Source: an uncultured Candidatus Saccharibacteria bacterium
Lineage (GTDB): Bacteria > Patescibacteriota > Minisyncoccia > Minisyncoccales > 2-12-FULL-40-12
Assembly (NCBI GenBank): GCA_964518135.1
Contig: CAZFEY010000001.1
Span: forward strand, 2,856 to 66,855
Direction: 5' to 3'
DNA length: 64,000 nt
Part shown: positions 25,663 to 63,065 of the stretch, piece after piece
Layout: every line of letters begins with the position of its first letter
Position numbering within the stretch: position 1 is the stretch's first letter
Made by a program: the position numbers and the translations under genes
The notes under the pieces: generated by a model
The model's database searches: none
What the model was told of the DNA's origin: nothing
What the model saw: the letters and a program-made list of their open reading frames with translations, nothing else

Positions 25663-26790
25663 TTACCTAGCGAATGGGTTTGTCCCTCCTCTCACTTCAA
25701 AGTGCAAGTGACAACCAGTTGAAATTCCTGCACCACTCATTCCTGGCTTACCGCCCGTTAAGGCTATAACCTGACCTTGCGAAACTTGCTCGCCCGGACC
25801 CACCATGCTTGTAGCTAAGTGACCATAAAAAGTAACTAGTCCATTGGGATGTAAAATCATAATGTAATTTCCTGCTCCACCGTTCCAGCCATATCTTACT
25901 CTTTGTACTTGTCCTCCGGCCGCTGCATAGATTGGACTATTGCATTTACTGGCAAAATCAACGGCGTTGTGCCAGTGTAAACCTTGAGTTAAAGAGCAAG
26001 ACCCAACAACAGGACATATAAAATAGCTTGAACCGACCGGTATTTGATTCGATGGAACTATTGGCTTGGCAGCTACTGATTGTGACGGCATTTTTCCGCC
26101 CGGCACAACCAAGATGTCTCCTATATAAATATCTTCTTCTTCGGCTAACTCGTTAAAAGCAATAATATCATTCGTCTCTACTTTATAGGTTTTAGCAATA
26201 GCGGCCAAAGTATCGCCCTTTTTAACATAATGTGCCACGCCAGAAATAGGCAAGATGATCAATGACTGGCCCGGCTTTATCTTTGCGCCCCTGCCTAGCT
26301 CATTAGCCCAAAGCAATGTTTCTAAAGTGATATCGAACTTTTCGGCTATACTATTCAAGCTATCTCCATCTTCAACAATATACTCAACAATTTCTGCTCT
26401 GTCGCTCGAAAAATCTTCTTCTTCTCCGATTATCGCACCAAGCGTCTGGCCCGTTGTCATTACCGGAGGAGTAAAAGCCACCAAGCTGTTATTTTGCACA
26501 AATAGCGTATCTGGAGTTTCTTTAACTGCATCGGTCGTCGCCAGACCAACAAAAAGATCGGTTTTATTAACCGAACTTTTTATATCTTCATCCAATAATA
26601 TATTTAACAAATCAACGTTTAATAACGATGCTTGTAAATTATCCTTGACCAATAAGGCGCTTGTTTTCCGCGCAGAAAAAACATTGAAAACAGTAGCGAA
26701 TAAAAGCAAAATTACTACCACCAGCCATAAATGGGAAAAAGGGTCTTTGGCAGATCCTTTTCTCTTAAGCAAACTGATTGTTTTTCTCAT
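25663..26790 (-). CDS. LysM-domain M23 family peptidoglycan endopeptidase
   Basis: Two LysM repeats ('GDSLNSIAEKFDITLETLLWANEL', 'GDTLAAIAKTYKVETNDIIAFNEL'); M23 core 'HNAVDFA...GNYIMILHPNGLVTFYGHL...GCHLHFEV'; start taken at MRKTISLL signal anchor. Confidence 0.85.
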   Translation of the reverse strand: MRKTISLLKRKGSAKDPFSHLWLVVVILLLFATVFNVFSARKTSALLVKDNLQASLLNVDLLNILLDEDIKSSVNKTDLFVGLATTDAVKETPDTLFVQNNSLVAFTPPVMTTGQTLGAIIGEEEDFSSDRAEIVEYIVEDGDSLNSIAEKFDITLETLLWANELGRGAKIKPGQSLIILPISGVAHYVKKGDTLAAIAKTYKVETNDIIAFNELAEEEDIYIGDILVVPGGKMPSQSVAAKPIVPSNQIPVGSSYFICPVVGSCSLTQGLHWHNAVDFASKCNSPIYAAAGGQVQRVRYGWNGGAGNYIMILHPNGLVTFYGHLATSMVGPGEQVSQGQVIALTGGKPGMSGAGISTGCHLHFEVRGGTNPFAR

Positions 26791-26935
26791 TAAAGAGGCT
26801 AAAGCCTCAAAAGAGATTTGTTGTCTAGGAATATTTCTTAAAAATCTTTCAAAAAAATCTTTCCCGACTAGCCTAAGTGGCACGACGCACCACCGGCAAA
26901 CTATGTTTATTAGTTTATCACTACCAGGCATTAAG

Positions 26936-27060
26936 TCAACCCCGTTAGAAACCATCTGTGAAAATTTGCTTACTAAGCATAGAAGCCGTGAGGCGACTCC
27001 GTCTCATAGCTCTCTGTAAAATCGATGGCCATCGCGGGCTTCTAACGGGGTCAACTCCGA
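26936..27060. promoter_or_regulatory. structured element: perfect 11-bp inverted repeat (ccccgttagaa / ttctaacgggg) closing about 100 nt containing 12-bp palindrome cgatggccatcg; candidate riboswitch/leader or small RNA
   Basis: Arms at 26940-26950 and 27040-27050; internal hairpins (gcttagtaagc); lies in 5' leader region of M23 peptidase (minus) and upstream of rsmA (plus). Confidence 0.35.
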
Positions 27061-27977: not shown

Positions 27978-30533
27978 ATGGCTAATAAAAAAATAGTTCT
28001 AGCAATGCTGCTCGCCGTAGTTATTGTTCCTGTATTCTTTTCTTTTGCTTGGGCACAGAACGATAGAGAGCTAGAAGTTGACTACCCGGACATTGGCGGA
28101 ATAGCAGGACCAACCAAAGTTACCGTAGGGCTTCCAGAATACATTAGATATATTTTTAATTTCGTTGTTGGGTTTGCTGGTGTTATTTTATTATACGCCC
28201 TGATAAGGGGAGGCCTTTCTTATTTAGCCTCGGGGGCAAATGTGGCAAAATTAAAAACGGCAAGAGAGCAACTCGGCTCTGTCTTTTTGGGAATAGTAAT
28301 CCTTTTGTCATCTTACATCATCTTAACTACCATTAATCCTCAATTGGCTATTTTAAACCTTCCAATTTTTAGCAATCTGAATTTGGGAGGAGGAACTCCT
28401 GCAACATTCACCACAGACGAAGCGTCTATAATCTATTATGAGATTCCGATTGGACAAATGATAAAAAATGGGGTCTGGAAAACGAGCGCGATAGAAGCAA
28501 TGACCAACATAGATGAAACGGGAATATTAGACGAATTTGAAAAATTTATTACAAGCGAAATTACCACAAGAGATGGAATTTCTATTAAAAGAATCTCTGA
28601 TTTAAATAAATACCTTAAAACATTAGCCGAGAGTTGTAGCTGTAGTGAGATGTCTCCGATCTGTACCAAGCCTAAAAACTTTACCATTGATGTTGGCTGT
28701 ACCGGAGATCCTTGTGAAAAAAATAGAGACAAAATAGAAGACGTCCTAGACATCAATAGCAAGCTAATAGAAAATCCTGACGAGCCAATAAATAGCCTTA
28801 AAGAATTCAATGACAAAATAAAGGATAATCCTGATGAGCCAATAAATAGCCTTAAAGAATTCCTAGAAGAACAAGATAAATTTTTTAACAATCTTGATGT
28901 CCAAGAAAAATTTTCTGAGTGCTTAGAGACTGGGTTTTTAATAACACAGGGTGAATATTTACAATCCGTACGCTACTACGAAGATCAAGGAATTAAAACA
29001 GAGGTCGTCCAGAGCTATATGCCTTCTAAAGGCGACCCATTTACATTTTATTGCACCGTTGGCGGCACAATGATGGATATACCGATAAAGCAAGACGAAC
29101 TTTCCGTACCTATATCGGGTGGAACTGGGTTTGACTTACCGCCATCCGCAACAGAAGAGCCTGAACCATTGAGCTGTCCCGGCGTGGTGCCTATTGGCGA
29201 AATAATAGACGTTGTTGGATCTGCTTCTGTGATATCGAATGAAAACTTAACAGGGCTTACGGAGTTAATCGACGAACTAACAATCGAGATGAGAGATATG
29301 GCCGATAGAATATCGGAGTGCAACGAAGACAGTTGCAAATCACCACAGACTGGCAAGAATGCTGCTAATTGTAAGTGCTTTCCTAATCCTTGTTATATAC
29401 CTCCCGGCGTCCCCTGTCCTCCCGGTTTGGGATTTTGCGTTGGACAGATGTGCATGACCCCTTGTCTCAAGCCATCTCCTGGTAGTTGTGAGGCTAAAAA
29501 TTTTGATGCCCCAAACTATGGCTCACCATGCCCTTTGGGAAGATTGGCTGAATCTTCTGAACCAGGAGATCCCCCAGACATAAAGTCAATGGAAAAAACC
29601 ATTAAAGACATTAAGAGAACTGAAAATACAATTCTTGAAGCTATCGAAGGGCTAAGGCAAGGCTTTTCCAATACGCCCTACGTTGTTGAAACTCCGCAAC
29701 AAATCCCAATAGACTTAGTAGAGGGAGTCAAATGGGTTATGGGATTTTGTAGAAATGAAGATATTGTCAATCCAACCTGGGCAATGGTAAATTGCGGCTT
29801 GGCTACCGGCAATATAGGACCTGATGGCAATGAAATTGCTGGATGCGATCTGCGAAGTTTCTTTTGCTGTACTGGCGATAGGGCAGCAGCAGAAAACGCA
29901 AGACTATCATATTCTAGCGGTGGAGGTGGAGGCGGGGGTGGACAATATGCCGCAACCTATTACACCCCATACGTTGGTCCACCAGTAGCGACTGATGGCG
30001 CATGCAACCAAAGAATCATTACGCAAGCATCAAAATATGACGGAATACTTTATAGTCAAGGATGGAATAAGTCAACATATCCTGCTGAATGCCGAACTCG
30101 AAGTAGGGGCCATTGTTACACGGCTGCGGAAAATAAAGGACCAGAAGGAGTACAATGCCTAGATTGTTCTGGTTTCGCTAGTCGCGTTTATAGAGATCTT
30201 GGTATTCTCCCGCTAGCACCAACTGACCCGAGCGCAGGATGGTGTCATCATGTAGCAGCAATAATAGCCAATAGGTCATATTTCTACGAAATATCAGCGC
30301 AAGATATATTACCAGGAGATTTAGTTACGAATGGCTCTGGTTCTGAAGGAGACCCTATGCATGTTGTTATTTATGAAAGCGGTGATGCCTCAAGAAGATT
30401 TTGGACGTGGCAAGAAGGAGGCGGAGGCGGTGGTGGCCTTCCCGGCTGTAATGGTAAAGTATGTAGAACAGAAAGGACCGCGCGAAGCAATCAGCGATAC
30501 TGGAGAAGAGTAAATGAATGCGATACGTTCTAA
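27978..30533 (+). CDS. secreted fusion protein: VirB2/TrbC-like two-helix pilin-like N-domain + Cys-rich ectodomain + C-terminal NlpC/P60 peptidoglycan hydrolase domain flanked by Gly8 runs
   Basis: Signal peptide; 'YIRYIFNFVVGFAGVILLY...ASGANVAKLKTAREQLGSVFLGIVILLSSYI..TINPQL'; NlpC/P60 Cys 'CLDCSGFASRVY' and His 'GDLV...HVVIY'; GGGGGGGG at aa about 650 and about 815. Confidence 0.6.
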   Translation: MANKKIVLAMLLAVVIVPVFFSFAWAQNDRELEVDYPDIGGIAGPTKVTVGLPEYIRYIFNFVVGFAGVILLYALIRGGLSYLASGANVAKLKTAREQLGSVFLGIVILLSSYIILTTINPQLAILNLPIFSNLNLGGGTPATFTTDEASIIYYEIPIGQMIKNGVWKTSAIEAMTNIDETGILDEFEKFITSEITTRDGISIKRISDLNKYLKTLAESCSCSEMSPICTKPKNFTIDVGCTGDPCEKNRDKIEDVLDINSKLIENPDEPINSLKEFNDKIKDNPDEPINSLKEFLEEQDKFFNNLDVQEKFSECLETGFLITQGEYLQSVRYYEDQGIKTEVVQSYMPSKGDPFTFYCTVGGTMMDIPIKQDELSVPISGGTGFDLPPSATEEPEPLSCPGVVPIGEIIDVVGSASVISNENLTGLTELIDELTIEMRDMADRISECNEDSCKSPQTGKNAANCKCFPNPCYIPPGVPCPPGLGFCVGQMCMTPCLKPSPGSCEAKNFDAPNYGSPCPLGRLAESSEPGDPPDIKSMEKTIKDIKRTENTILEAIEGLRQGFSNTPYVVETPQQIPIDLVEGVKWVMGFCRNEDIVNPTWAMVNCGLATGNIGPDGNEIAGCDLRSFFCCTGDRAAAENARLSYSSGGGGGGGGQYAATYYTPYVGPPVATDGACNQRIITQASKYDGILYSQGWNKSTYPAECRTRSRGHCYTAAENKGPEGVQCLDCSGFASRVYRDLGILPLAPTDPSAGWCHHVAAIIANRSYFYEISAQDILPGDLVTNGSGSEGDPMHVVIYESGDASRRFWTWQEGGGGGGGLPGCNGKVCRTERTARSNQRYWRRVNECDTF
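28773..28863 (+). repeat. two 36-bp near-identical direct repeats (aatcctga[c/t]gagccaataaatagccttaaagaattc) 55 bp apart, in-frame (ENPDEPINSLKEF x2)
   Basis: Direct reading of sequence; 1 mismatch. Confidence 0.8.
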
Positions 30534-30592
30534 AAAATCTTAGCGGAAATATTTTAATAACCCCACTTTGAGTTGTTGATAAAATATTATTT

Positions 30593-33500
30593 ATGAATAA
30601 AAAAAGTATTTATAATGTATTTAAAAAAACTAGCGGCCTGACCATCCCTCTTTTCGCATTAATCTTAGCCACGATTGCGATCTTGTTAGTTGCAACCAAA
30701 AGTGCGGCTCAAATACCATCTCTTTTTCTGCCAAATTTTCCAAGCAGATTAATGTATTTATCGGACGCGATAGCTAATACTAGCCAAGAATTAATCAGTC
30801 CAAATCAAGACATGATAGATCTTGTTAATGAATGTAGCTGCGAATTCTCACAATCCCAATGCAAACAAATTATAACAAATGGACAACCGTCTGGCTGTGT
30901 AACGATTGGGGCTATCGGTAAACCTTGTTCTTTGGTATCTCCAGGAGAAGAAACAGAACCTACGATCCGCAGTTTACAGCGAAAATCTCGTAATTTGGCA
31001 TTGGATTTATCTTACTTGCGAAAACTTCTAATTAAAGAAAAAGAGGCGGGACTAGAAAGACAACTTGAAACATTAAGAAAAGATCCAAGTGCGGGCATTG
31101 ACGACGCTCAAGACCTAAGAGATGCAATTAATATCATCCTTGGAACTTCTGCCGATTACGCAGACGGCGCCCTTTCTAAGGTCATAACAAAAGCGGAGGC
31201 TAATCTAGAAAGACCAAAACAGTGCTCGACCAATGCTTGTACCCCTCATTGCGGCCCAGGAGATAGTTTCTCTTTAAGTGAGTATATGTGTTTACCAGCT
31301 CTTACCTTCGAACTTGGCGAGGTAAAACCAACCGTTATTAATTTCCATGCTGGAATTGAGATTGAGGATTGGGAGCTTGGCAAGATAGAAATAACCAATG
31401 TTAAATTAAATCTTCCAGAGTCAATTGACATACCCGAACTTCCGGGACTAAAAATGCCATCTTTTTCGATATCTGTGCCGGAAATCAAAATTGACTGTCC
31501 AACCAAAAAACAAGAAATTTCCTTCCAAACTCCACAACCCTCTCTGCCAAAAACACCGACGATGAAATTATCCTGCCCAACCTATAATACGACTGCTAGC
31601 TATCAATACCCATCAGACCTTCAACCGGGCAGTGAAAAGTATCGAGAATTCGAATGGTTTTTGGAAACTTTCTCTTGGTTATCGGGCATATGTATGGATG
31701 CGGTATGGGGAGATGGAGATTTACCGGATAGCCAAAAAATGCAATACCCCGATAAATTCAATCAGTCTTTAACTACTTGTTTCGACCCATTTAATGTTGC
31801 TAATAAATTAATACAGGAGTGTAACGAACAGTATGCGAACTATCATCCATCCAACCCACCAAGCGGTCCACCGCCAGTTTATCCTGCCTGTGAATATTGG
31901 GTTAACAAACAACCGGCCGAGTTTGGCAGTATAACAGAAGAACATTGTTTTAAATTTTTTGAAGGATTTGCCGATCCATCAGGAACGCAGGGGTGGGAAG
32001 ATATCGACGGAAACCCTGCAACGAACGATCCAAAAACATTTGACCCTGGAACAAAAGATAAAATATATGACTATCTCGAGCAAAAATACGGAATCACAAT
32101 AGACGACGAACCCCAAGACCAATGTCGTGATAAACTAGACCCTCTACCAACCCTTATTGATTCTTGCAATAAACTTCGCGAGCTACATCCCCAGAAACAA
32201 GCTATAGAATTCCCCGATCAATGTAAGATCTTACCAATATTTTACAATCTTCCAGACTATATCCCTCCCCATCAAATTGCTAGTCCAGAAGTTCTTGAGT
32301 TATTTGCTCAATCTCAATTATTATCAGGGCAACAAATGAACGACCTGCCAAGCAAATCGATTTCCGGTTGCCCCTCTATTGGAGCTCCTTCAATACCTAA
32401 AATACCATTATCTAAGTACTCGATAATTATTCCCGATATCAAGCTACCAACTTTTAAATTGGGTCCGTTCTTCAGAATAAAATTACCTAGTCTAATTTTT
32501 GAGGATTTGATATTTGAAGATATTGAACTATGCAATCTGGATGATTGCCAATTCAAATTCCCCAATTTAAACTTTGAAGCACCAACGTTAACAATACCTC
32601 AAATAGACGTTCCATCGATTAAGCTTGAGAGCTTTAACGTACCTGGCATTCCTAACGATATCGGCAAGGGCATAGAGATAAGTATAAGCCCTATGGAATT
32701 TCAGCCATTTGATTTTGACTTTTCACAGCTGATTAATTTAAATTCTCTGGTTTCTCCAGAATTCCAGACTCCCGATATTTCTCTCCCCAAACCGAAACTG
32801 ACGTTTGGCTTTGAGGGACTTGATATTGATTTCACAAGTTTGCTATCTGGATTATTTGATTTTAACCTTCCGCCAAACCCTGGTCTCGCATGCCTCCCAG
32901 AATTTTGGAATATAGATGGCATACCTATCGCATTCGACTTCCCTGACTATATTTTTTCTTGGCCTGCATTCCCAGATATCCCTGAAATTCCTGGCTGCGC
33001 GGATGCTAAAAAATTCTGCAAAGACATCAATGGTTCTATTCAGAAAATAACTGAACAGGCTGGAGAAATTCAAGAAGTTGTTAATGGCACTATCCAAACT
33101 GAAATCCAAGGCGTTCTTAATATGTTCAAAAATGAGATAGAAAACCAATTAACGGGCGCTATCGAAAGCAAGCTTAACGATATCGCAACAGAAATTAAAA
33201 AAGAAATTTACAATTGGATCCAAAGCAATGCTCCACCATCAACAAGCCTACCCTCAGCTCCGATACCGGGAGTATTCCCAGTAGCTGATGGGCTTTCTTG
33301 TCAAGGACTACCGCCTTTAACTATTGACCTAAAAGATATTCTTGGCGACCTATATATTAACACGATAGAATTGGAAGATTATTTACCACCGGGGTTGAAT
33401 CTGGAAAAAATTTCTATTCCCTGGCCAGATGAGTTAAAAAACTTAGATCTTTCAACGATAAACAATCCTCTATGCTCGGACTGTAAAGGATTAAGTTATG

Positions 33501-33766
33501 AACTACCAACCGTTCCTCTCTCTGGTCTTAAATATGAAAAAAGTGTACCAATTGAGCTCCCCGGATTCCAATATCCTTCTCCACAAATTAATTTCGGGAG
33601 TCCTTTACCAAATGCAACTGCCTGTGTTAGCCAACCGCCGACTGGGAACGCTTGCGGCGCAGCTCCTGGCGACATGCAAACCGACCTTACTGGTTCTGAT
33701 GGCATACAAGAGCTCAGCCAAAAACTTAACGATGCTTCTAAAAAGATAAGGGATGTATTACAATAA
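30593..33766 (+). CDS. large (1057 aa) N-terminally membrane-anchored Cys-rich extracellular protein
   Basis: Single N-terminal TM; shares 'ECSC...C...GC...PC' module with 27978.. protein; many Pro/Cys; no catalytic motif recognised. Confidence 0.55.
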   Translation: MNKKSIYNVFKKTSGLTIPLFALILATIAILLVATKSAAQIPSLFLPNFPSRLMYLSDAIANTSQELISPNQDMIDLVNECSCEFSQSQCKQIITNGQPSGCVTIGAIGKPCSLVSPGEETEPTIRSLQRKSRNLALDLSYLRKLLIKEKEAGLERQLETLRKDPSAGIDDAQDLRDAINIILGTSADYADGALSKVITKAEANLERPKQCSTNACTPHCGPGDSFSLSEYMCLPALTFELGEVKPTVINFHAGIEIEDWELGKIEITNVKLNLPESIDIPELPGLKMPSFSISVPEIKIDCPTKKQEISFQTPQPSLPKTPTMKLSCPTYNTTASYQYPSDLQPGSEKYREFEWFLETFSWLSGICMDAVWGDGDLPDSQKMQYPDKFNQSLTTCFDPFNVANKLIQECNEQYANYHPSNPPSGPPPVYPACEYWVNKQPAEFGSITEEHCFKFFEGFADPSGTQGWEDIDGNPATNDPKTFDPGTKDKIYDYLEQKYGITIDDEPQDQCRDKLDPLPTLIDSCNKLRELHPQKQAIEFPDQCKILPIFYNLPDYIPPHQIASPEVLELFAQSQLLSGQQMNDLPSKSISGCPSIGAPSIPKIPLSKYSIIIPDIKLPTFKLGPFFRIKLPSLIFEDLIFEDIELCNLDDCQFKFPNLNFEAPTLTIPQIDVPSIKLESFNVPGIPNDIGKGIEISISPMEFQPFDFDFSQLINLNSLVSPEFQTPDISLPKPKLTFGFEGLDIDFTSLLSGLFDFNLPPNPGLACLPEFWNIDGIPIAFDFPDYIFSWPAFPDIPEIPGCADAKKFCKDINGSIQKITEQAGEIQEVVNGTIQTEIQGVLNMFKNEIENQLTGAIESKLNDIATEIKKEIYNWIQSNAPPSTSLPSAPIPGVFPVADGLSCQGLPPLTIDLKDILGDLYINTIELEDYLPPGLNLEKISIPWPDELKNLDLSTINNPLCSDCKGLSYELPTVPLSGLKYEKSVPIELPGFQYPSPQINFGSPLPNATACVSQPPTGNACGAAPGDMQTDLTGSDGIQELSQKLNDASKKIRDVLQ

Positions 33767-33776
33767 CATAACATCA

Positions 33777-35465
33777 ATGAAGCAGGAAAAAGATAAAATT
33801 AATAAAACCGTCTTTCTTGTGATCGCAATTTTGTTTTTGTCTTTTTCTTTTAGCGATTATGCAGTAGCGGCATTAGCTAAAAAATGTGGCCCCGATAATC
33901 CTAGCGACCCCGCTTGTCTCCCCGGACAAAAGTGCGTAGAACAAGAATTGGGATCACCACCCGAAACAGAGTGGAGGTGTGCCAGGCCATTGGAAATTAT
34001 TTACCCTCAAATCCCAGGACAACCTGCGACAACAACGCCAGAAACGGTTGCTACTGGCCTCTCTCAATACTTTAGATATATTTTCCTATTTGCAGTTTTT
34101 CTTATCGGATTAGTAATCCTGGCCGTTTTTGTTTATTACGGAACAAGATATATGTCGTTGGCTTCGACCGGAAACGTGTCCGGACTCGCCGATGCCAAGC
34201 AAGGTATTAGCGCGGCTCTATTAGGAACTGCAATCTTGGTGTGCTCCTATGTTATATTTAATACTATAAATCCACAACTAACTATCCTTTCATTGCCAAG
34301 CGCGGCAATCTTAGAACAAGTAATCCCACCCGGCGTTTACGTCTGCAATTACGAATACAGCGGTAATTCAGTTACAAGCAAGGCTGTCAGTGAAAATCTT
34401 ATAGCCGATGACAGTATTGGCACTATTCTGTCTGCTTACATTTCTAAAGCAGGGGAAGAGCAAATCGAGATTGTTAAATTAATGCAAAGCATATTTGTTG
34501 ATCCGGACAATAATGATCATACCTGTCCAAAGGTCAATTTTTCTGGTAATTTCCAAAACTTTGCAGTCGAAGAAAAGAATACAATGTTTGTTGTCCCATC
34601 TATAAGATTTTCTGCTCAACTTAAAGCTGGTAGTACCGACGAATACGAGTATGTAAAAAAACCGTCCTACGAATACGGCTTGATTTTACACGAGAAAGAT
34701 GATTTAAGAGGTAAATGTTTAGAATATCCGAATATTAACGATTACGGTGGACAAATTTACACCGAGGTCACGTTTGAAAATGGAAGAATGATGATTGGCG
34801 ATACTCCTTATAGCACCGGAGGGACATATGTGAATCCAATAAAGGACTTTGAGGCGGGGGTGGGAATTCCAAACAATAACTTTTCCAAGAATCGCGCCAG
34901 ATCAATAACAATTTTTAAAAGACCAGAAATAAAACCATCCTCAACAGCCCAAGGATTAACATTACATATGTGCGCTGATTACGACAGAACCGGAATGTGT
35001 CCACAGTCTCTGTATGATGCTGGGGCAATAGACACGACAACGGGGGAACCTAAATATCCAGCTAGTGCTAATTTCCCACCTAACTTAGCACCGCCAGCAG
35101 ACCCTAAAGATACAGACGTTTATTCTCTTTATTCCAGTGATCCCAATTTGCCCATCGACCCTCGCTTAGAGAACGTAGCTCCGGGGACAGGAAACGGTTA
35201 TGGTATACGATCAACTCGAATCGATCCCGACAATTCAGTATTCGCGATTTTAATGGATGCCGAGAATAATTGCTCGATTCTTAAAGGCGATAATCCCGAT
35301 ATTGGAAATATAGCAATCAATAAATGTGATTTTGACGTCGATCAACAGGTAGGCGGTCGCTGTGACTCAAAACACGGTCTTTTGTGGTGGCACTGGGGCG
35401 GATTCACTGATAAATGCGTGCCCTGCGTTACCACAATACAAGTTTTTGAAGGTAAAGTATTGTAA
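33777..35465 (+). CDS. secreted fusion protein: VirB2/TrbC-like pilin-like domain + about 400-aa C-terminal ectodomain
   Basis: Signal peptide, 'YFRYIFLFAVFLIGLVILAVFVYY...ASTGNVSGLADAKQGISAALLGTAILVCSYVIFNTINPQL' aligns with 27978.. N-domain; start taken at MKQEKDK. Confidence 0.55.
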   Translation: MKQEKDKINKTVFLVIAILFLSFSFSDYAVAALAKKCGPDNPSDPACLPGQKCVEQELGSPPETEWRCARPLEIIYPQIPGQPATTTPETVATGLSQYFRYIFLFAVFLIGLVILAVFVYYGTRYMSLASTGNVSGLADAKQGISAALLGTAILVCSYVIFNTINPQLTILSLPSAAILEQVIPPGVYVCNYEYSGNSVTSKAVSENLIADDSIGTILSAYISKAGEEQIEIVKLMQSIFVDPDNNDHTCPKVNFSGNFQNFAVEEKNTMFVVPSIRFSAQLKAGSTDEYEYVKKPSYEYGLILHEKDDLRGKCLEYPNINDYGGQIYTEVTFENGRMMIGDTPYSTGGTYVNPIKDFEAGVGIPNNNFSKNRARSITIFKRPEIKPSSTAQGLTLHMCADYDRTGMCPQSLYDAGAIDTTTGEPKYPASANFPPNLAPPADPKDTDVYSLYSSDPNLPIDPRLENVAPGTGNGYGIRSTRIDPDNSVFAILMDAENNCSILKGDNPDIGNIAINKCDFDVDQQVGGRCDSKHGLLWWHWGGFTDKCVPCVTTIQVFEGKVL

Positions 35466-35486
35466 TATTGAATATTTAAAAAACCG

Positions 35487-37070
35487 ATGATAGAGCGTCT
35501 TATCGCCGTATTCACGGCTATCCCAACCCTTATAATTGCGGCTATCTATCTGCTCTTTATTTTGATTACTGGGTTTTTTGTGTCTGTGGCAAGTGGTCTT
35601 TTAGAATGGATAATCAGCCCAAACTTTATTTCTTTAAGCTATACCAAGCCCTGTCTAGCAATCAACAATTACCAGCCTACCGGATCCGCAGATACTTGCA
35701 ACCCCGTAATTGGGCTTGGTTTAGATACTATCCAGCAATTTGTTAACATGTTATTGGTGTTGATACTAATATATATAGCGCTCTCAATAGCCCTTAGAGC
35801 TGGCGGAGGCAAAGCTGAAAAATTATTTCCGCAACTAATCATTGTGGCTCTCTTAGTCAATTTCGCTCCAGTTTTCATAGGTTTAGTTGTTGATGCGGCC
35901 AATATTTTAATGAATTATTTCTTAACCCCTTTACAGGGCGGATTTAGCCAGATCGGGGCTCAGTTATCTGTATTTTGGGATGCGATAGTAAAAAACTTCT
36001 CGAAAATATGGTCTGACCTACCAAGCCAAATGACGCTATTGGGCATGGGATCTGTAATAGTATTTGTAAATATTACCGTGGCGACGATCTTATTCTTGTT
36101 CGCAGGAATCCTTTTTGTCAGGTTTATAGCTATCTGGGTAATTGTCATCTTGTCTCCTCTGGCTTTTGTCTTTTCGATCCTACCTCAAACCAATAATCTG
36201 TATAAAATGTGGGAAAAACAGCTAGTCCAGTGGTCATTTGTAGGAATACCGATCGCGTTTTTTATGTATCTCGGCGTTTCAAGCCTATCTGTACTAACGC
36301 AGAACTTTAATGCCGCCTCGATACAAGCCCCGAATTTAAATTCTTCAGTATCGCAGCTTTTGAGTCAATTACTCCCTTATTTCACTGTGGTTATTTTCTT
36401 GGTAATAGGACTCTTTGTGGGAATTTCCATGTCGGCGATGGGCGCTAACGCTGTCGTAAAAGGTATGGGAAAGGGAGCCGCTGCGGTTGGGAACTGGAGC
36501 AAAGGAAAGATTGGCGACTTAGGAAACAGGGTCAGGCAAGGCGCAAAGAATCGGGCAGGGCAATTCACATTTGCTCAAAGACAATCTATGAATGCCGGAA
36601 GAACAAAATTACAAGCCTTTACGTCTGGAACAATGGCAGCGGCTGGTTGGACTCATTCGAAACAGAAAAGCACCGGTATGGTATACCGTGCCGCAAGAAA
36701 AACAGGCTACGGAAAATTGCGCGCAGCATGGGCAACTACCGCTGCGACCACTGGTCTCAATAGAGGTATAAATACTGCTTTAAGAGGTCAAATTAAGCTT
36801 CAAGCATATAAAAAGGGACTGGCGCAAGGCATGACCAAAAAACAAGCAGTTAAGTACGCCCAACAATACACCGCGCTCTTGCAAAAACTACCTCAAAAAC
36901 GAAAAGATAGTGCGAAAAAGGCATTTAAGAAGGGAGCTGGAACAATATTATGGAGAGCTCCCATGGCGGTAACTAGAGGAATGAGTGGCGCTATCTTATT
37001 GGCTTTAAAAGAAATATATAAAGAATTAAGCAAAAAGAAGAAAACAAAAAAAACGAAAAAAAAGCCATAA
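35487..37070 (+). CDS. polytopic membrane protein, VirB6/TrbL-like by architecture (6-7 TM + basic hydrophilic C-tail)
   Basis: Multiple hydrophobic helices then long Lys/Ala/Gly-rich tail ending KKKTKKTKKKP; position within T4SS-like locus. Confidence 0.4.
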   Translation: MIERLIAVFTAIPTLIIAAIYLLFILITGFFVSVASGLLEWIISPNFISLSYTKPCLAINNYQPTGSADTCNPVIGLGLDTIQQFVNMLLVLILIYIALSIALRAGGGKAEKLFPQLIIVALLVNFAPVFIGLVVDAANILMNYFLTPLQGGFSQIGAQLSVFWDAIVKNFSKIWSDLPSQMTLLGMGSVIVFVNITVATILFLFAGILFVRFIAIWVIVILSPLAFVFSILPQTNNLYKMWEKQLVQWSFVGIPIAFFMYLGVSSLSVLTQNFNAASIQAPNLNSSVSQLLSQLLPYFTVVIFLVIGLFVGISMSAMGANAVVKGMGKGAAAVGNWSKGKIGDLGNRVRQGAKNRAGQFTFAQRQSMNAGRTKLQAFTSGTMAAAGWTHSKQKSTGMVYRAARKTGYGKLRAAWATTAATTGLNRGINTALRGQIKLQAYKKGLAQGMTKKQAVKYAQQYTALLQKLPQKRKDSAKKAFKKGAGTILWRAPMAVTRGMSGAILLALKEIYKELSKKKKTKKTKKKP

Positions 37071-37095
37071 AATAATAAATTTAAAATAAAAAACT

Positions 37096-37566
37096 ATGCC
37101 CGAAGAATTTGATATTCAAAAAGTAAAAGAAAATTACCCTGAAATACTAGAGATAATACCATCAGAAATCATAGACCTAGCCACTTCGGAAGATACTCAA
37201 AATAGCATCGCTGGTATTTGTATTGATAACGACATAGAAAGCGAAGAGATCATTGAAAATATTGCTTATTATATAGGTCTATCTTTGTTGGGCGAGTTGC
37301 CTATTCAACAATTAACAGACACTCTTGTTGAGAAAGTAGGATTAGAGCATGGCTTAGCGGAAAAAATATATACAGAAATCGATCAGGTAATATTTGATAA
37401 GGTTCGAAGTTCTTTGGAAGAATTATACAAGAAAAGAGATCAAGAAATAACAGAAGGAGAAATCGATGAATTATCCGAAGAACAAGAAGATTCTAGCGCG
37501 CCAGAAACGCAAAAAGCAGGAGATCAAGAATCAACAAAAGACACTTACCGAGAAAATATTGAATAA
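37096..37566 (+). CDS. acidic hypothetical protein
   Basis: pI clearly acidic, no motifs. Confidence 0.45.
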   Translation: MPEEFDIQKVKENYPEILEIIPSEIIDLATSEDTQNSIAGICIDNDIESEEIIENIAYYIGLSLLGELPIQQLTDTLVEKVGLEHGLAEKIYTEIDQVIFDKVRSSLEELYKKRDQEITEGEIDELSEEQEDSSAPETQKAGDQESTKDTYRENIE

Positions 37567-37634: not shown

Positions 37635-37997
37635 TCACCCTTCTTCATCTTCATCCTCCTCTTCGTCTTCATCCTCCTCCTCTTTTCTTCGAGGTTTAGG
37701 TTTAGACGATTTGAACTTAGATCGTTTTTTGTTGGTACCTTTCTTGGGTTTCTCATCGATCTCTACCTGGAAAACAGCTTCTAGGAAACCGATGATTATC
37801 ATCCAAATAATGTACCAAATTGCCATGATCGCGATCAGTAAACCGCTACCTATCGCGATCAAAATATTACCACCCATTTTCCAGCCAGAACCATTTCTGG
37901 TTGTTCTGCGAGGGATACGTCCGTAACGAGACTTTCTTCTATTGACGCGTCCACCGACATCAACAATGTCCTCCCCAAACTGTTCTTCATCCGTCAT
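37635..37997 (-). CDS. small membrane protein with poly-Glu/Asp tail (possible NfeD-like partner of SPFH protein)
   Basis: Two TM helices; translationally coupled (overlap) with upstream SPFH gene. Confidence 0.4.
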   Translation of the reverse strand: MTDEEQFGEDIVDVGGRVNRRKSRYGRIPRRTTRNGSGWKMGGNILIAIGSGLLIAIMAIWYIIWMIIIGFLEAVFQVEIDEKPKKGTNKKRSKFKSSKPKPRRKEEEDEDEEEDEDEEG

Positions 37998-38974
37998 TAT
38001 TTGCCTCCCTTAGCTAAGGAAATGAGCTGGGCAAGCGTAGCATCTACACCTTGCCCACCAGCGAATTCGACTCTCTGGCCGGCATTTGCAGCATATGCTA
38101 TCTGGGCCGGAGTGAGATCGATAGCCGCCTTGTAAAGCATCTGCTTAAGCGCTGGATCCTTGTTAATCTCTTTTTGCAGATCGATTGTCGACTTGCCAGA
38201 GATTTTTTCCAGGGCTCGCATTATTGCCCCAACTCCACCCTTAGTAATAGCTTCTGCTTCATGTTCAGCGGCATCGGCTTTACGCAAAGCAGTCTGAACG
38301 AGGGCTCGTGCCTCTAATAGATCTTCGCTTAGGTCAAAATCACGAATAGTGATTTGTTCCAGGTGAATACCTATTTTATCGAGAGCCTCAATGATTTTCG
38401 CGAGCTCTCCTTGCGGTAGCTGATTTTTCAAATCAACCCCAGAACCCTTCATTGTTAAGCCTTCATCTAAGTGCAGTGTGTTGAGGTAGGCTCGGATAGC
38501 GTTTTCGAAAAGATTTCGAGCAACACTCATCCAATTCTCAACAGAGTAGGTTGCTCTGTACGCGCCTGACCAAGAGTTGCCAGTTGCGTCTTCGTACGCT
38601 TCATCTGGACTTTTGACCCGTACTTGCGCTATCACACCGCGAGGTGTCGCGCTCCCATCTTTGAAATCTACCTCAATCGAAGTATCTCCTTCGAAAAGTT
38701 TGACCTCTTGGATCCAAATCGGAATAATATTCCGAATTGTTTCTATGCCCGGAATGATCCATTGCAACCCGGGACGAAGTGATCGGAAAAATTTTCCAAA
38801 TAGCTCCGTTACAAATCTCTCTTCTTCGCCGATTGATCTGAATCCATAGAAAACCGAGATCAACACAACGGTCAAGATACCACCGCCCCAATAATGACCG
38901 GCTCGAAACAGCACAAGGTCGATGATCGCACCAATAATGATAGCGATAATCATAAAGACAGTTAGAGTAGGCAT
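37997..38974 (-). CDS. SPFH/band-7 (stomatin/HflK-like) membrane protein
   Basis: N-terminal TM then band-7 core 'VTELFGKFFRSLRPGLQWIIPGIETIRNI...IEVDFKD'. Confidence 0.8.
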   Translation of the reverse strand: MPTLTVFMIIAIIIGAIIDLVLFRAGHYWGGGILTVVLISVFYGFRSIGEEERFVTELFGKFFRSLRPGLQWIIPGIETIRNIIPIWIQEVKLFEGDTSIEVDFKDGSATPRGVIAQVRVKSPDEAYEDATGNSWSGAYRATYSVENWMSVARNLFENAIRAYLNTLHLDEGLTMKGSGVDLKNQLPQGELAKIIEALDKIGIHLEQITIRDFDLSEDLLEARALVQTALRKADAAEHEAEAITKGGVGAIMRALEKISGKSTIDLQKEINKDPALKQMLYKAAIDLTPAQIAYAANAGQRVEFAGGQGVDATLAQLISLAKGGK

Positions 38975-39062: not shown

Positions 39063-39114
39063 TACTTAAAACTGGCTTTTTTGAATGTATTTTGTGTTAT
39101 AATTTAAGAAGTGA

Positions 39115-39180
39115 TAAACTTATAGAACAAGTTTGTTCCTGATGAAATAGAATAAGTTTGTTATTAGCGCAATAAAGCAA
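39115..39180. promoter_or_regulatory. three 25-bp-phased direct repeats with core AAGTTTGTT inside short palindromes (gAACAAGTTTGTTc / aatAAGTTTGTTatt / agcAAGTTTGTTgct); candidate operator array
   Basis: Cores at 39119, 39144, 39169 (exact 25-bp spacing); same palindrome family at 63066-63098. Confidence 0.5.
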
Positions 39181-39205
39181 GTTTGTTGCTAATGCAATAA
39201 AGCAT

Positions 39206-39622
39206 ATGCAATTTGATGTCCCTCAATTTGTTGAGTCTGAAACCAAAATAGCTGGATCTTTAACATTTAGACAGGTTTTATATCTTGCTGCTGCTGGTAT
39301 TGTCGTAATGGTTTCTTATTTCGGCCTGGCCAAAACCAACCTTGGTTTATTTATATTTATTACTGTTTTGGCAATCGTTTTTGGTTTGGCGTTCGCATTC
39401 CTTAAGATTGGTGGATTCTCTCTGGCAGTCTTTCTGAAGAATCTAATATTTTTCTTGATATCTTCCAAGGTTTATCTGTGGAGAAAACCTGCTGTGGCAC
39501 CCAAGGTTATCCAGAAAAGAATCGCTTCACCAGCAGAAGCAGAGAAAGAGAAAACCCTTAAAATGGGTGGAGAAAGCCGACTTAACAAGCTTTCAACCCA
39601 AATAGAAACAAACACCCAATAA
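39206..39622 (+). CDS. PrgI/VirB3-like small two-TM protein
   Basis: 'LTFRQVLYLAAAGIVVM' then second TM; size and position immediately upstream of VirB4 as in Gram-positive T4SS. Confidence 0.45.
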   Translation: MQFDVPQFVESETKIAGSLTFRQVLYLAAAGIVVMVSYFGLAKTNLGLFIFITVLAIVFGLAFAFLKIGGFSLAVFLKNLIFFLISSKVYLWRKPAVAPKVIQKRIASPAEAEKEKTLKMGGESRLNKLSTQIETNTQ

Positions 39623-39627
39623 CAACT

Positions 39628-40272
39628 ATGGCCGAACTTACTACGCAAAAGTTTTTAGAAATATCTCAAATCAAGGAAGGTGTTATCGTTCTGCGAAATA
39701 AAGCTCTGCGAGGAATCTTAATGGTGTCTTCGGTTAACTTCGCGTTGAAGTCTACTGACGAACAAAGCGCTATCCTGTATCAATTCCAAAGTTTTTTAAA
39801 TGCGCTCGATTTTTCGTGTCAAATAGTTGTTCAATCAAGAAGATTAAATATCACCGGTTATTTAGAAAAGTTGGAAGAACTAGAACAAAAACAAAAAAAT
39901 AAACTTTTAAAATTACAAACGAAAGAGTATAAAGATTTTATTAAACAATTGGTTGAAGAGAAAGAAATACTAACTAAAAGTTTCTTTGTGGTTGTACCAT
40001 ATTCTATTTCGGAAATGATTGGTCCTGAATCTTCCCAGAAAGGATTATTAGCGCAAGCTAAATTGCCAACTTTGACAGAAGAAAATTTCCAAAGATGCAA
40101 AACGCAACTATGGCAAAGGATGGAGTATGTGGCTCTAGGATTAAGAAGGTGCGGACTTCAATCTGTCCCCCTGACAACGCCCGAAATCGTCGAGCTTTTT
40201 TGGAGCTTACATCATCCTAAAGAAGCAGAAGTGGGATTTTACCCGGAATTTCCAATGGAATTAATTGTGTAA
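39628..40272 (+). CDS. VirB4/TrbE N-terminal-domain-like protein (separate ORF)
   Basis: 'LRGILMVSSVNFALKSTDEQSAILYQFQSFLNALDFSCQIVVQS' resembles N-terminal region of VirB4-family ATPases. Confidence 0.45.
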   Translation: MAELTTQKFLEISQIKEGVIVLRNKALRGILMVSSVNFALKSTDEQSAILYQFQSFLNALDFSCQIVVQSRRLNITGYLEKLEELEQKQKNKLLKLQTKEYKDFIKQLVEEKEILTKSFFVVVPYSISEMIGPESSQKGLLAQAKLPTLTEENFQRCKTQLWQRMEYVALGLRRCGLQSVPLTTPEIVELFWSLHHPKEAEVGFYPEFPMELIV

Positions 40273-42074: not shown

Positions 42075-42473
42075 ATGCCAGAAGAAATCGAGGAATCGCA
42101 AGAACCACAAGAAACAGAAGAAATCCAGGAGAGTGGCGGAGCAATGAACCTTTTAAGCCCAGAAGGGCTTGTAATGATGTCTGTGGCAGTAGTTATTGAC
42201 TTGATCGGCTTGATTATAGTGTGCGTAGGATTAGATGATTTTGGCATCACCGATATAATAGGTATGATTTTTATAGGCTCTTGGATGTTTTTCAGGTCTG
42301 GCGCAATGCCAGAAAGAAAAACTCCCTCGAAAAAATCGAAGGGAGCTGGGAAAACGGCAGAGCGAAATGTATTAAAAAGATTCGGCCTAACAGGGCTAGC
42401 CGAGCTAATCCCGTACTTAGGCGCACTACCTTGGTGGACTATAATGGTTTATAAAGAATTAACCGAAAGCTAA
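42075..42473 (+). CDS. small acidic-N-terminus membrane protein
   Basis: Two hydrophobic helices; last gene of plus-strand block. Confidence 0.45.
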   Translation: MPEEIEESQEPQETEEIQESGGAMNLLSPEGLVMMSVAVVIDLIGLIIVCVGLDDFGITDIIGMIFIGSWMFFRSGAMPERKTPSKKSKGAGKTAERNVLKRFGLTGLAELIPYLGALPWWTIMVYKELTES

Positions 42474-42979
42474 CCTGCTAAAGCGCCCGACTTAAGCCTT
42501 ATAGCTATTCTTCTGTTCGGATTTTCTCCAATGCTTTCGGTAATAATATTTTCGTTATTGGATAATTCCATATGAACAACCCTTCTTTCGTAAGCCGACA
42601 TCTGTGGTAAAACTATTTCCTTTTTGGATAAAATAACTTCTTCTGCTGAAAGCCGAGCTAGCTCTTTTAAGTACTCGGATTTTTTCTTTTTATAGCTATT
42701 GATGTCTAATTCGAATAAAAACTGTTTATCCGTTTTCTTTCTCAACACGCACCTAATCAAGTGTTGGATCTCCATTAGCGCCTGGCCACGCTCGCCAATC
42801 AAAACCTGTGGCTCCTGGGCATGGACGTCAACCGAAACAACATCTGCCGGGACAGCATTTTTGTCTTGCGCAGAAGTACTGCCTAGCACCAAAGAGCCAA
42901 GTTCAACTTCAAATCCTGTTTTTTGGAAAAATTCTTGGATTAAGTTTTTTATTATTTTTAATTCGTTGCTGTTTATCAT
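42470..42979 (-). CDS. Jag/KhpB-like RNA-binding protein (KH + R3H)
   Basis: R3H motif 'ERRVVHMELSNNENI', conserved synteny downstream of yidC. Confidence 0.8.
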   Translation of the reverse strand: MINSNELKIIKNLIQEFFQKTGFEVELGSLVLGSTSAQDKNAVPADVVSVDVHAQEPQVLIGERGQALMEIQHLIRCVLRKKTDKQFLFELDINSYKKKKSEYLKELARLSAEEVILSKKEIVLPQMSAYERRVVHMELSNNENIITESIGENPNRRIAIRLKSGALAG

Positions 42980-45806: not shown

Positions 45807-45960
45807 TCTGTGTAAAACCAATTATTGACTTGTGGAAAAATAAATAATTTAAAATTAAATTTATTATCCACAAAAAATAAACAACAAAAAACATCAAAAA
45901 AAACAACTTTTAAAGCTTAATAATAATTAAAGATTATTATCCACACAAACAACTATAATA
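45807..45960. promoter_or_regulatory. oriC-type region: two perfect DnaA boxes TTATCCACA (45868-45876, 45941-45949) plus degenerate box, AT-rich
   Basis: Exact consensus 9-mers read in sequence; classical dnaA-dnaN intergenic location. Confidence 0.7.
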
Positions 45961-63054: not shown

Positions 63055-63065
63055 ATTATTTACGC

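Follow-up and report, generated by a model that had tools for sequence, protein, structure and literature searches.

The window analyzed here is a 64,000-nt stretch of DNA from a groundwater Patescibacterium and contains a T4SS-like operon. The operon begins with prgI (39206-39622, + strand; VirB3-like, PF12666), followed by a TraC-like gene (39628-40272), a VirB4-like ATPase gene (40265/40280-42067) and a gene for a 132-aa membrane protein. In the one experimental analysis so far, the Patescibacteria T4SS was essential for epibiotic growth (PMC12102498); the words "promoter" and "operon" are absent from the text of that paper. Ahead of prgI is an extended -10 promoter element, TGTTATAAT (P1; 39095-39103, + strand), which matches the consensus, and promoter prediction puts the transcription start of the operon at ~39110. 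The promoter block TTTTGTGYTATAATTTAAGAAGTG is identical in L088, the sole syntenic relative found, while the sequence flanking it has diverged. In both the window and L088, the conserved TGYTATAAT is positioned 7 nt ahead of the 5' arm of an inverted repeat, AGTGATAAACTT (39110-39121, + strand), so that the leader opens with AGTGATAAACTT-N7-AAGTTTGTTCCT. The 5' arm is retained in L088 but for one change, which is compensated, and doubles as a second extended -10-like element, TGATAAACT (39112-39120); an exact 10-mer of it recurs at 24469 and, on the minus strand, at 26913. Behind this arm is an array of short repeats, and its position downstream of the conserved extended -10 promoter would place it inside a ~95-nt prgI 5' leader. 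The leaders of other promoters of the same type in the window are 16-55 nt long.

The 9-nt core AAGTTTGTT occurs three times in the leader, at 39129-39137, 39154-39162 and 39179-39187. The first-pass annotation had described three cores exactly 25 bp apart, and the start-to-start distances of 25 and 25 (from 39129 to 39154 and from there to 39179) bear this out. Tandem Repeats Finder reports 39128-39204 with a period of 25, 3.1 copies and 73% matches; read directly, the array spans 39122-39204 and has 3.3 copies, so that the coordinates first given for it hold as far as they go but stop ~25 bp short of its end. The three full units, all on the + strand and each containing one core, are ATAGAACAAGTTTGTTCCTGATGAA (39122-39146), ATAGAATAAGTTTGTTATTAGCGCA (39147-39171) and ATAAAGCAAGTTTGTTGCTAATGCA (39172-39196), and a partial fourth copy of 8 nt, ATAAAGCA (39197-39204, + strand), abuts the prgI ATG at 39206. 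Two mini-ORFs are present: ATG AAA TAG (39142-39150), which begins in unit 1, and ATG CAA TAA (39192-39200), carried by unit 3. The core is unchanged in all three units, and 9 of the 16 remaining unit positions vary. Self-complementary flanks, which had also been claimed, are found in every unit, but their register shifts from unit to unit: unit 1 has GAACA/TGTTC around a central AGTT, unit 2 forms the local palindrome AATAA-GTTTG-TTATT and unit 3 forms AGCAA-GTTTG-TTGCT, the last two centered on GTTTG. The array shows no copy-number variation, and seven independent assemblies of this population all carry it unchanged, which rules out an assembly artefact. A cluster of exact DnaA boxes is located in the dnaA-dnaN spacer (45831-45945), ~6.7 kb from the array, and chromosomal T4SSs of Patescibacteria are widespread and usually found near oriC. 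An iteron array or oriC element was considered and rejected, there being no DnaA boxes in or beside the repeats.

The promoter and 5' arm recur in the L088 leader together with one repeat unit, and the window leader is 51 nt longer. The L088 unit consists of the 3' arm plus the sequence behind it, 25 nt in all, of which the window carries 3.3 copies, and it is bounded by a 9-nt direct repeat, ATAAAACGA, at 9968-9976 and 9993-10001, 25 nt apart. The partial fourth copy in the window corresponds to the right-hand member of this direct repeat. The strict 25-bp period would thus be explained by slipped-strand duplication of an L088-like unit with direct repeats at its bounds, and on this comparison it is well supported that the array represents a lineage-specific tandem duplication of a short piece of promoter-leader. 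The single L088 unit, AACGAGTTTGATT, is not palindromic. The leader is found in just one relative, so the evidence for its conservation is thin; PrgI homologue identities drop from 99% straight to 70% and 67%, with no intermediates found, and the contigs of L001 and L002, the closest by VirB4, break at or before prgI. Alignment of the L088 leader with the start of the rplT gene of L088 gave a score of 26, which we take as chance.

In most related Patescibacteria only a few nt separate the prgI start from the stop codon of the gene before it, which encodes a protein with a "...DTYRE(P)IE" tail. A same-strand ORF ends no more than 60 nt from prgI in 45 of 68 related loci, and in 32 of those 45 it has a Y[RKHQ]E tail, as does the 156-aa protein of the window. 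Only in the window lineage and L088 does a divergently transcribed Band-7 gene pair separate prgI from the preceding gene, and through this separation prgI has gained an extended -10 promoter and a leader of its own. A role for the repeats as a Shine-Dalgarno substitute or translational enhancer of genes without a Shine-Dalgarno sequence was dropped, because a strong Shine-Dalgarno sequence is present in just 6 of 51 window genes, which makes prgI and rplT unremarkable.

Recurrences of the array motif elsewhere in the window, as listed in the first-pass annotation, are all present: the reverse complement of the 12-mer at 63087-63098, AACAAGCTTGTT at 63066-63077 and AATAAGTTTGTT at 14078-14089. 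A further exact 12-mer, AACAAGTTTGTT, missing from that list, is found at 24493-24504 in the comM/YifB ORF. The 9-mer occurs six times in the window against 1.57 expected, a count reached by 0 of 100 shuffles, and the 12-mer with at most one mismatch occurs eight times against 0.97 expected, so recurrence is above chance. These counts overstate independence, since three of the matches are one tandem array and one palindrome is counted on both strands; moreover, 21 other 12-mers are likewise present at least three times in this AT-rich window. A stronger test is to align the complete leader (39105-39215) locally with the window and to compare the scores with those of 30 simulations. The resulting scores were 42 for comM, 41 for the rpmI-rplT spacer and 35 for the region upstream of an M23 peptidase gene, compared with a best score of 29.0 ± 2.2 and a maximum of 34 in the simulated windows (n = 30). 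There are four significant copies, each in sense with respect to the gene at its site, and ~19 kb of extra genome beyond the window contained no further copies of the motif.

The comM/YifB copy, AAGTGATAAAC-N14-AACAAGTTTGTTCCTAACGGAATAAAG (24467-24519, + strand), covers codons ~151-168, which encode a variable linker loop. It shares an exact 11-mer and an exact 15-mer with the leader, the two arms being identical at 26 of 26 positions while the loops differ. At the DNA level the copy is absent from the comM genes of the relatives L101 and L102, and part of it overlies residues homologous to DQS-TDKF of a 75%-identical ComM. Insertion of the whole element in frame into comM is not supported, the loop being variable in relatives. 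The second copy, AGTGATAAACTAATAAACATAGTTTG (26891-26926, - strand; 23 of 27 positions match), is in the promoter of an M23/LysM peptidase gene, the true start of which is likely the ATG at 26790. In this copy TAAACT is the -10 of TTGACT-16-TAAACT, and the promoter TTGACT-16-(TGT)TAAACT is conserved in L101.

The recurrence of the motif between rpmI and rplT had been claimed previously, and it is borne out in the form of a two-unit copy, GAACAAGTTTGTTATGTCAATAAACAAGCTTGTTGCGTAA (63060-63099, - strand), that runs across the rpmI stop codon and the spacer and ends 5 nt ahead of the rplT ATG. Tandem Repeats Finder assigns it a period of 21 and 2.0 copies. Aligned with units 2 and 3 of the leader it matches in 36 of 44 columns, including the inter-unit linker CAATAAA(G)CAAG, and its 21-bp period would have arisen from the 25-bp unit through a 4-nt deletion. 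Because it keeps the linker, this copy would have been copied as a block rather than having arisen through separate evolution of individual binding sites. The corresponding spacers of the relatives L103, L104 and L105 lack it. A doubtful, degenerate copy, TGATAATAAATAAGTTTGTTTTT (14070-14092, + strand), is positioned between tRNA-Ala and the Vut_1 (yhhQ-like) gene, antisense to both; it contains the 12-mer with one mismatch, and its alignment score of 29 is at the noise level. Taken together, the copies suggest that pieces of the leader would have been copied in sense orientation to the comM loop, the M23/LysM promoter and the rpmI-rplT spacer.

The predicted fold of the leader has a free energy of -27.9 kcal/mol (z = -3.0). 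RNA folding gives the 5' arm two alternative partners, AAGTTTGTTCCT of unit 1 (9+2 bp) and unit 2 (14 bp). Reduced to its minimal form, the hairpin scores z ~ -2.1 in the window as well as in L088; in each it consists of a 2+9-bp stem and a 7-nt loop, and all four stem differences between them are structure-neutral, among them one A-U to U-A compensated pair, one A to G change that gives G-U and one change at a mismatch position. The G-U pairs of the hairpin fall on the sense strand. The second and third units have acquired differing complementary flanks at positions where L088 and unit 1 are non-complementary. The rpmI-rplT copy folds into a 13-bp hairpin (z = -2.75), and shuffled sequences are as stable as the hairpins of comM and M23 (z = 0.05 and 0.42). 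In an alignment of the four copies, 90.9% of cells are paired and two pairs change on both sides, values equaled by 43-64 of 500 shuffles, which makes the covariation signal from these four sequences statistically weak. No match at the gathering threshold was found in Rfam 15, where the leader and the rplT spacer returned noise only (E ~0.5 or more, with scores far below gathering thresholds). If the second -10-like element TGATAAACT is active, with a start at ~39127, the 5' arm would be untranscribed and no hairpin would form in the RNA; a twin of this element appears, by prediction, to act as the promoter of the M23 gene.

These observations lead us to a reading that we favor but hold tentatively, namely slipped-strand triplication in a young prgI promoter-leader, which would form RNA hairpins with modest or no regulatory effect. 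The array would be transcribed within the ~95-nt 5' UTR, where each of the three AAGUUUGUU-containing units could either serve as the partner of the single 5' arm or fold back on itself; together these options would yield a 5'-proximal hairpin with alternative stems. The hairpin, the alternative stems and the two AUG-stop mini-ORFs might plausibly tune the stability or translation of the prgI-virB4 message. A cis-regulatory role for the array is plausible, and our favored guess is that any function would be exerted at the RNA level, perhaps with a small effect.

The first-pass annotation had instead read the repeats as a helically phased, dyad-symmetric operator array for a dimeric transcription factor controlling the secretion locus. 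What stands of this is that the array is non-random, is promoter-proximal ahead of prgI and virB4 and recurs at rpmI-rplT; phasing, dyad symmetry, regulator and conservation do not. A period of 25 bp is 2.38 turns of B-DNA, a non-integral number, so successive cores would be on different faces of the helix (at 21 bp, the units of the rplT copy would be in phase). The core shared by all units lacks symmetry and is repeated in direct orientation, the flanks vary in both register and bases, and the L088 unit is single and non-palindromic. A Pfam search for a nearby HTH regulator, covering the 51 larger window ORFs and the flank genes with Pfam hits, found none; across ~83 kb (the window plus called flank genes) Pfam identified no HTH, RHH, winged-helix or other DNA-binding regulator, the only regulator candidates being a DksA/TraR zinc-finger protein, YebC and a receiver-only response regulator. 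Jag/KhpB (42470-42979) is a further predicted nucleic-acid-binding protein. Among 74 related loci the region ahead of prgI lacks a conserved copy of the motif, save for one doubtful case (L032); the motif is also absent at orthologous positions and is not enriched, with 28 9-mer matches in the 1.27 Mb of 80 related loci, approximately our own estimate from base composition. A match to TAAACT-N9-AGTTTG in L043 is antisense within dnaA and is taken as chance, and a literature search for the 12-mer returned only unrelated eukaryotic or Rickettsia primer-type matches. LexA of the Cheo type recognizes an SOS box, the palindrome GAAC-N4-GTTC upstream of SOS genes; such a box was rejected here, since GAAC...GTTC occurs in unit 1 alone and with a 6-nt spacer. 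A repressor might still bind the AAGTTTGTT direct repeats or AAACT-N9-AGTTT and co-regulate the T4SS operon and the M23/LysM gene. A protein that recognizes a direct repeat could equally explain why the 9-nt core never varies among the three units, the sites at +1 to ~+78 of the predicted transcript are where roadblock repressors act, and AAACT-N9-AGTTT occurs exactly twice in the window, in the prgI leader and the M23 promoter, each time over a -10-like element (expectation 0.25; 4 of 100 shuffles reach 2). Predicted promoters overlap or adjoin the prgI and M23 copies, but the comM-internal and rpmI-rplT copies are away from expected promoters, one inside an ORF and the other between cistrons. 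On balance we consider such an operator unlikely. A functionless by-product is somewhat easier to credit, although still improbable in our judgment: a young intergenic region would have been assembled from duplicated scraps and amplified by slippage, the dispersed copies would be filler or ectopic-repair patches, and nothing would read the motif. It would fit the strict lineage specificity, with the closest relatives lacking the motif at every orthologous site, the slippage substrate visible in L088, the second, independent tandem duplication of the same sequence at rplT, the incidental linker sequence shared by copies beyond the motif itself, the many unrelated 12-mers that also recur, and the absence of further copies in the ~19 kb of additional genome. 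It accounts less well for nine invariant core positions amid diverged flanks, for which our rough estimate under uniform neutral decay is ~0.01-0.1, and for the gain in units 2 and 3 of two new complementary flank pairs each, with different bases. The preservation of pairing by all four stem differences from L088, the identity of the comM and leader arms despite the differing loop, and the constant copy number of the array across the seven assemblies also weigh against it.

The dispersed, imperfectly palindromic and lineage-specific copies could also be viewed as a miniature mobile palindromic element (REP-, MITE- or RPE-like) or a competence-linked DNA-uptake sequence, and the in-frame position of the comM copy within a gene, as with Rickettsia palindromic elements, and the presence of comM and T4SS genes among the hosts would agree with this. 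However, there are just four loci in ~83 kb, with no terminal inverted repeats, target duplications or defined ends seen and no RAYT or IS200-type transposase found by Pfam, and the comM copy overlies residues homologous to the loop of relatives rather than being a clean insertion. Known DNA uptake sequences occur genome-wide at a density of ~1 per kb. An uptake sequence was rejected because the density here, ~0.09 per kb, is tenfold lower, with six 9-mer matches in 64 kb and none in the further ~19 kb. We regard this whole class of explanation as very improbable. Scans of viral contigs returned 39 and 12 matches, all unrelated. A metagenome scan for AAGTGATAAAC-N(2-32)-ACAAGTTTGTT returned seven unrelated matches; the source population was not among them, and the scan therefore says nothing about genome-wide copy number. 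Finally, a ~45-nt cassette of inverted repeat plus AAGUUUGUU units might constitute a cut-and-paste cis-regulatory module read by one hairpin- or repeat-binding factor, either an RNA-binding protein or a small RNA, which we think quite unlikely. If true, it would wire together the T4SS operon, a peptidoglycan hydrolase, the competence helicase ComM and ribosomal protein L20, with unit number setting the strength of control in a transcription-factor-poor Patescibacterium, and it would be the first cis-regulatory element described for a Patescibacteria T4SS.

The significance of the locus depends on whether the units affect expression. If they do, the conserved extended -10 promoter, the 5' hairpin and the choice of one or three units would provide a testable handle. 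If they do not, the locus would still clearly illustrate, on a small scale, how a reduced genome can put together a new promoter-leader once an operon has been split, through reuse of a -10/start cassette, amplification by slippage and ectopic copying to other genes. In either case, what looks like a "25-bp phased palindromic operator array" is not to be trusted at face value.

Operator arrays are known from conjugative T4SSs, for example, the PrgX sites at prgQ of pCF10 and the KorA/StbA boxes of IncW/IncP plasmids. The prgI leader resembles them in having short repeats between a promoter and the first transfer gene, but no cognate regulator gene was found here, the spacing is out of phase, the dyad is inconsistent and the array is absent in relatives; furthermore, the T4SS is chromosomal and without a relaxase (PMC12102498). 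Iterons and centromere-like arrays likewise consist of at least three direct repeats that keep a constant core and are spaced regularly by a little over 20 bp, but here there is no adjoining rep or par gene, and the array is away from oriC and inside a predicted transcribed leader. With REP/BIME, Correia and Rickettsia palindromic elements the copies share short imperfect palindromes, lineage-specific dispersal and one in-frame gene copy; they differ in their very low copy number, in the lack of defined ends and of a RAYT, and in varying in extent from one copy to another (hairpin only, units only or both). 5'-Terminal stem-loops stabilize bacterial mRNAs, as in the B. subtilis aprE and ermC leaders and the E. 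coli ompA 5' UTR. The hairpin here is similarly predicted at or within a few nt of the predicted 5' end and is kept in one relative through structure-neutral changes, but its 3' arm is triplicated, giving alternative pairings, and its AU-rich stems are weak, the minimal hairpin having a free energy of -6 to -7 kcal/mol. Putative mobile promoters were defined by at least 80% identity over at least 50 nt (Nijveen, Matus-Garcia and van Passel 2012; PMC3575422). The copies described here, at 26-45 nt, fall below that criterion, one of them is inside an ORF and one locus is tandemly amplified. As with putative mobile promoters, similar non-coding sequence precedes non-homologous genes in one genome (prgI, the M23/LysM peptidase gene and rplT), two copies include a -10 element and there is no associated transposase. 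By this analogy, the copying of leader pieces seen here and promoter reuse would be phenomena of the same kind.

Three copies of the 9-mer AAGTTTGTT (39129, 39154 and 39179) precede prgI at intervals of exactly 25 bp, as the first-pass annotation had claimed. TRF reports a 25-bp repeat across 39128-39204 (3.1 copies, 73% matches), and direct reading gives three full units (39122-39146, 39147-39171 and 39172-39196) plus an 8-nt partial copy abutting the prgI ATG at 39206. The array sequence is the same in seven independent assemblies. Within the 231-nt intergenic region, the Band-7 gene has its promoter (TTGACA-17-TATACT) on the minus strand, and the plus strand carries an extended -10 element, TGTTATAAT, at 39095-39103. 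The block TTTTGTGYTATAATTTAAGAAGTG is kept in L088, the only related locus with the same arrangement (PrgI 67% identical), where the surroundings have diverged. Transcription is predicted to start ~7 nt after the -10 element, roughly at 39110, which would place the entire array within a 5′ UTR of ~95 nt; elsewhere in the window, leaders behind promoters of this type are 16-55 nt long. The promoter-proximal, probably transcribed position of the array is well supported.

The L088 locus shares its promoter and first 30 nt with the window yet carries a single unit; the window sequence has an additional 51 nt. Two copies of a 9-nt direct repeat, ATAAAACGA, flank that L088 unit (9968-9976 and 9993-10001; 25 nt apart, the second overlapping the start codon), a classic substrate for slipped-strand duplication. 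The unit boundaries in the window (ATAGAACA, ATAGAATA, ATAAAGCA and again ATAAAGCA) represent the same repeat, and the units carry decayed remnants of the start region (ATG AAA TAG at 39142, ATG CAA TAA at 39192). The exact 25-bp period therefore results from tandem duplication, a well-supported origin that accounts for the spacing ascribed earlier to helical phasing; 25 bp corresponds to 2.38 turns and is out of phase. The contigs of the closest VirB4 relatives, L001 and L002 (78-79% identity), end at or just before prgI, where the leader would be, which could reflect assembly trouble at a repeat.

Of 68 related loci, 45 have an ORF on the same strand as prgI that ends no more than 60 nt from it, and 32 of those 45 ORFs encode a C-terminal Y[RKHQ]E tail, also present in the 156-aa protein of the window (37096-37566, ...DTYRENIE). 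In most of the relatives compared (L001-L080), the gene adjoining prgI encodes an acidic protein with the C terminus ...DTYRE(P)IE. The window and L088 alone have, between that gene and prgI, a divergent pair consisting of a Band-7/SPFH gene and a gene for a small membrane protein, by which the T4SS cluster is split into two transcription units. Since this pair is confined to the two loci, the promoter-leader is derived and belongs to a narrow lineage.

The leader begins with the inverted repeat AGTGATAAACTT-ATAGAAC-AAGTTTGTTCCT; for RNA of the window and of L088 alike, the prediction is a 7-nt loop on a 2+9-bp stem (minimal hairpin about -6.5 and -7.4 kcal/mol, respectively; z about -2.1). 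For the full leader, the predicted fold has -27.9 kcal/mol (z = -3.0), the 5′ arm (39110-39121) pairing with unit 2 over 14 bp. Four stem positions differ between the two loci, all structure-neutral: two form a compensated A-U to U-A pair, one is an A to G change producing a G-U pair, and one falls at a mismatch common to both. New complementary flanks, composed of different bases, have arisen in units 2 and 3, and the corresponding positions of unit 1 and L088 are non-complementary; the dyad symmetry proposed for a dimeric transcription factor is not supported. The structure-neutral changes, the new flanks and the G-U pairs of the sense strand favour nucleic-acid pairing over protein recognition of a fixed palindrome. 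A covariation test, weak with only four copies, found 90.9% of cells paired and two pairs changed on both sides, and 43-64 of 500 shuffles did as well.

Elsewhere in the window, every match that the first-pass annotation had reported outside the array is present, and an exact 12-mer that it had not listed lies within comM at 24493. The 9-mer occurs six times (1.57 in shuffles) and the 12-mer, allowing one mismatch, eight times (0.97 in shuffles), counts that are mutually dependent in an AT-rich window where 21 other 12-mers also occur at least three times. Because these raw matches are not independent, the whole leader (39105-39215) was aligned locally against the window, with 30 second-order Markov simulations as the null (best score per simulated window 29.0 ± 2.2, maximum 34). 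Scores of 42 in comM, 41 in the rpmI-rplT spacer and 35 upstream of the M23 gene exceed that maximum. The composite GATAAAC-N(2-25)-AGTTTG occurs three times (0.10 expected). Recurrence of leader sequence within the window is real; the site near 14078 scores at noise level, and ~19 kb of further sequence on the same contig yielded no additional leader copies.

All three copies, like the leader, are oriented sense to the local gene. The comM copy lies in a variable linker loop and combines exact AAGTGATAAAC with exact AACAAGTTTGTTCCT, the gap between them being 14 nt rather than the 6 nt of the leader; this DNA is absent from the comM genes of relatives with 70-75% identity. Clean insertion was rejected, as the segment partly overlies residues homologous to the loop of relatives. 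This linker (ComM residues ~150-170, between the ChlI-like and AAA+ domains) is hypervariable among Patescibacteria, with 0 to ~17 extra residues, the window version being the longest of 43 aligned sequences. The rpmI-rplT copy (minus strand, 40 nt) matches units 2-3, including the inter-unit linker, at 36 of 44 columns, has a 21-bp period through a 4-nt deletion, and is predicted to form a 13-bp hairpin; it must be younger than the tandem duplication. The copy is missing from the rpmI-rplT spacers of relatives, among them the L088 organism itself and one whose L20 is 91% identical. An 8-codon ORF in this copy (63060-63086, minus strand; ATG TCA ATA AAC AAG CTT GTT GCG TAA) ends 5 nt ahead of the rplT start codon.

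Upstream of the M23/LysM gene, the minus-strand copy AGTGATAAACTAATAAACATAGTTTG agrees with the leader in 23 of 27 columns, and its TAAACT forms the -10 of a predicted promoter, TTGACT-16-TAAACT with an upstream TG; that promoter is kept in the related locus L101. This gene probably starts at ATG 26790 (MRKTISLLKRK..., then a hydrophobic segment) rather than at the longest-ORF ATG; the L101 homologue aligns from residue 78, and the longest ORF (430 aa) is probably over-extended. The adjacent ksgA-M23/LysM intergenic region contains a near-perfect 21-bp inverted repeat, GAGTTGACCCCGTTAGAAGCC...GGTTTCTAACGGGGTTGACTT, around ~80 nt (26935-27057, minus strand), with only partial counterparts in L101 (CCCCGTTA); its right arm includes the -35 (TTGACT) of the predicted promoter. 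No Rfam family matches the 296-nt region, which has a predicted folding energy of -98.6 kcal/mol (z = -5.7); the element could be a MITE-like insertion, resemble a terminator or form a structured leader.

The DNA is chromosomal, from a groundwater Patescibacterium whose nearest named genomes are Wildermuthbacteria- and Nealsonbacteria-type Parcubacteria; sequence beyond the window came from NCBI GCA_000991295.1, contig LBRG01000002.1 (~19 kb extra). A DksA-like protein gene and comM/YifB (24016-25572, plus) precede the M23/LysM gene (25663-26955 as longest ORF, minus), ksgA with five large or unknown proteins (27978-37566, plus), the Band-7 and small membrane-protein genes (37635-38974, minus) and prgI (39206-39622, plus; PF12666), followed on the plus strand by TraC-like, VirB4-like ATPase and small membrane-protein genes, and then by jag, yidC, rnpA, dnaA and dnaN. 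L101 homologues of the five proteins have faint Pfam matches, including T4SS-pilin and TrbL/VirB6-type. Two exact DnaA boxes (TTATCCACA) cluster with a 1-mismatch box at 45831-45945, within the dnaA-dnaN spacer; this probable oriC is ~6.7 kb from the array and ~6 kb from the T4SS-like genes, in agreement with a Patescibacteria survey that described T4SS genes close to the origin, most such clusters being without relaxase (PMC12102498). The words "promoter" and "operon" are both absent from the survey text (PMC12102498).

Other repeats in the window include a 54-bp tandem repeat (28753-28862; two copies, 85% identical) within an 851-aa NlpC/P60-domain gene of the T4SS cluster, and a giant 2390-aa ORF (5554-12726, minus) with at least nine copies of a 75-bp unit at 6584-7248 and units of ~270 nt recurring at 8342-10396 with spacings of ~770-1010 bp. 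A strong Shine-Dalgarno sequence lies within 20 nt of the start in only ~6 of 51 window genes; A/T-rich sequence stands before most starts, which suggests that this organism generally initiates translation independently of an SD.

We tentatively prefer, at slightly less than even odds, a leader RNA that would have a modest effect, carrying mini-ORFs and a 5′-proximal hairpin for which three different 3′ partners are available. Its main weakness is that the 5′ arm would not be transcribed if TGATAAACT, rather than TGTTATAAT, were the active -10, and the twin of TGATAAACT at the M23 gene is apparently the active -10 there. Rfam has no match to the array leader. It is also possible, if somewhat doubtful, that the array is a functionless by-product of a young, duplication-built region; the slippage substrate in L088 and the narrow distribution are consistent with this, and the structure-neutral stem changes point the other way.

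Control of the secretion locus by a protein operator, as originally proposed, appears unlikely. It would most plausibly act at AAACT-N9-AGTTT, which occurs in the window only at the prgI and M23 promoters and overlaps the two -10 elements. The HTH regulator expected nearby was not found by Pfam among the 51 window ORFs or the called genes with Pfam matches in flanking loci, and the small ORFs adjoining the array encode membrane or acidic proteins. The 9-mer has 28 matches in 1.27 Mb of related genomes, without enrichment. Left of the window on the same contig, L109 (14866-21530) encodes two HisKA sensor kinases, one with PAS domains, a receiver-only response regulator, a HAMP protein and a PilB-type T2SSE ATPase, with no DNA-binding output domain seen in the cluster. 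A mobile palindromic element or uptake sequence would explain dispersed copies and is very improbable: a metagenome scan that missed the source population itself gave chance matches only, and viral-contig scans gave unrelated matches only. The literature yielded nothing on the motif. The closest known phenomenon is promoter reuse by "putative mobile promoters" (PMC3575422), although the leader copies are shorter than the 50-nt criterion of that study.
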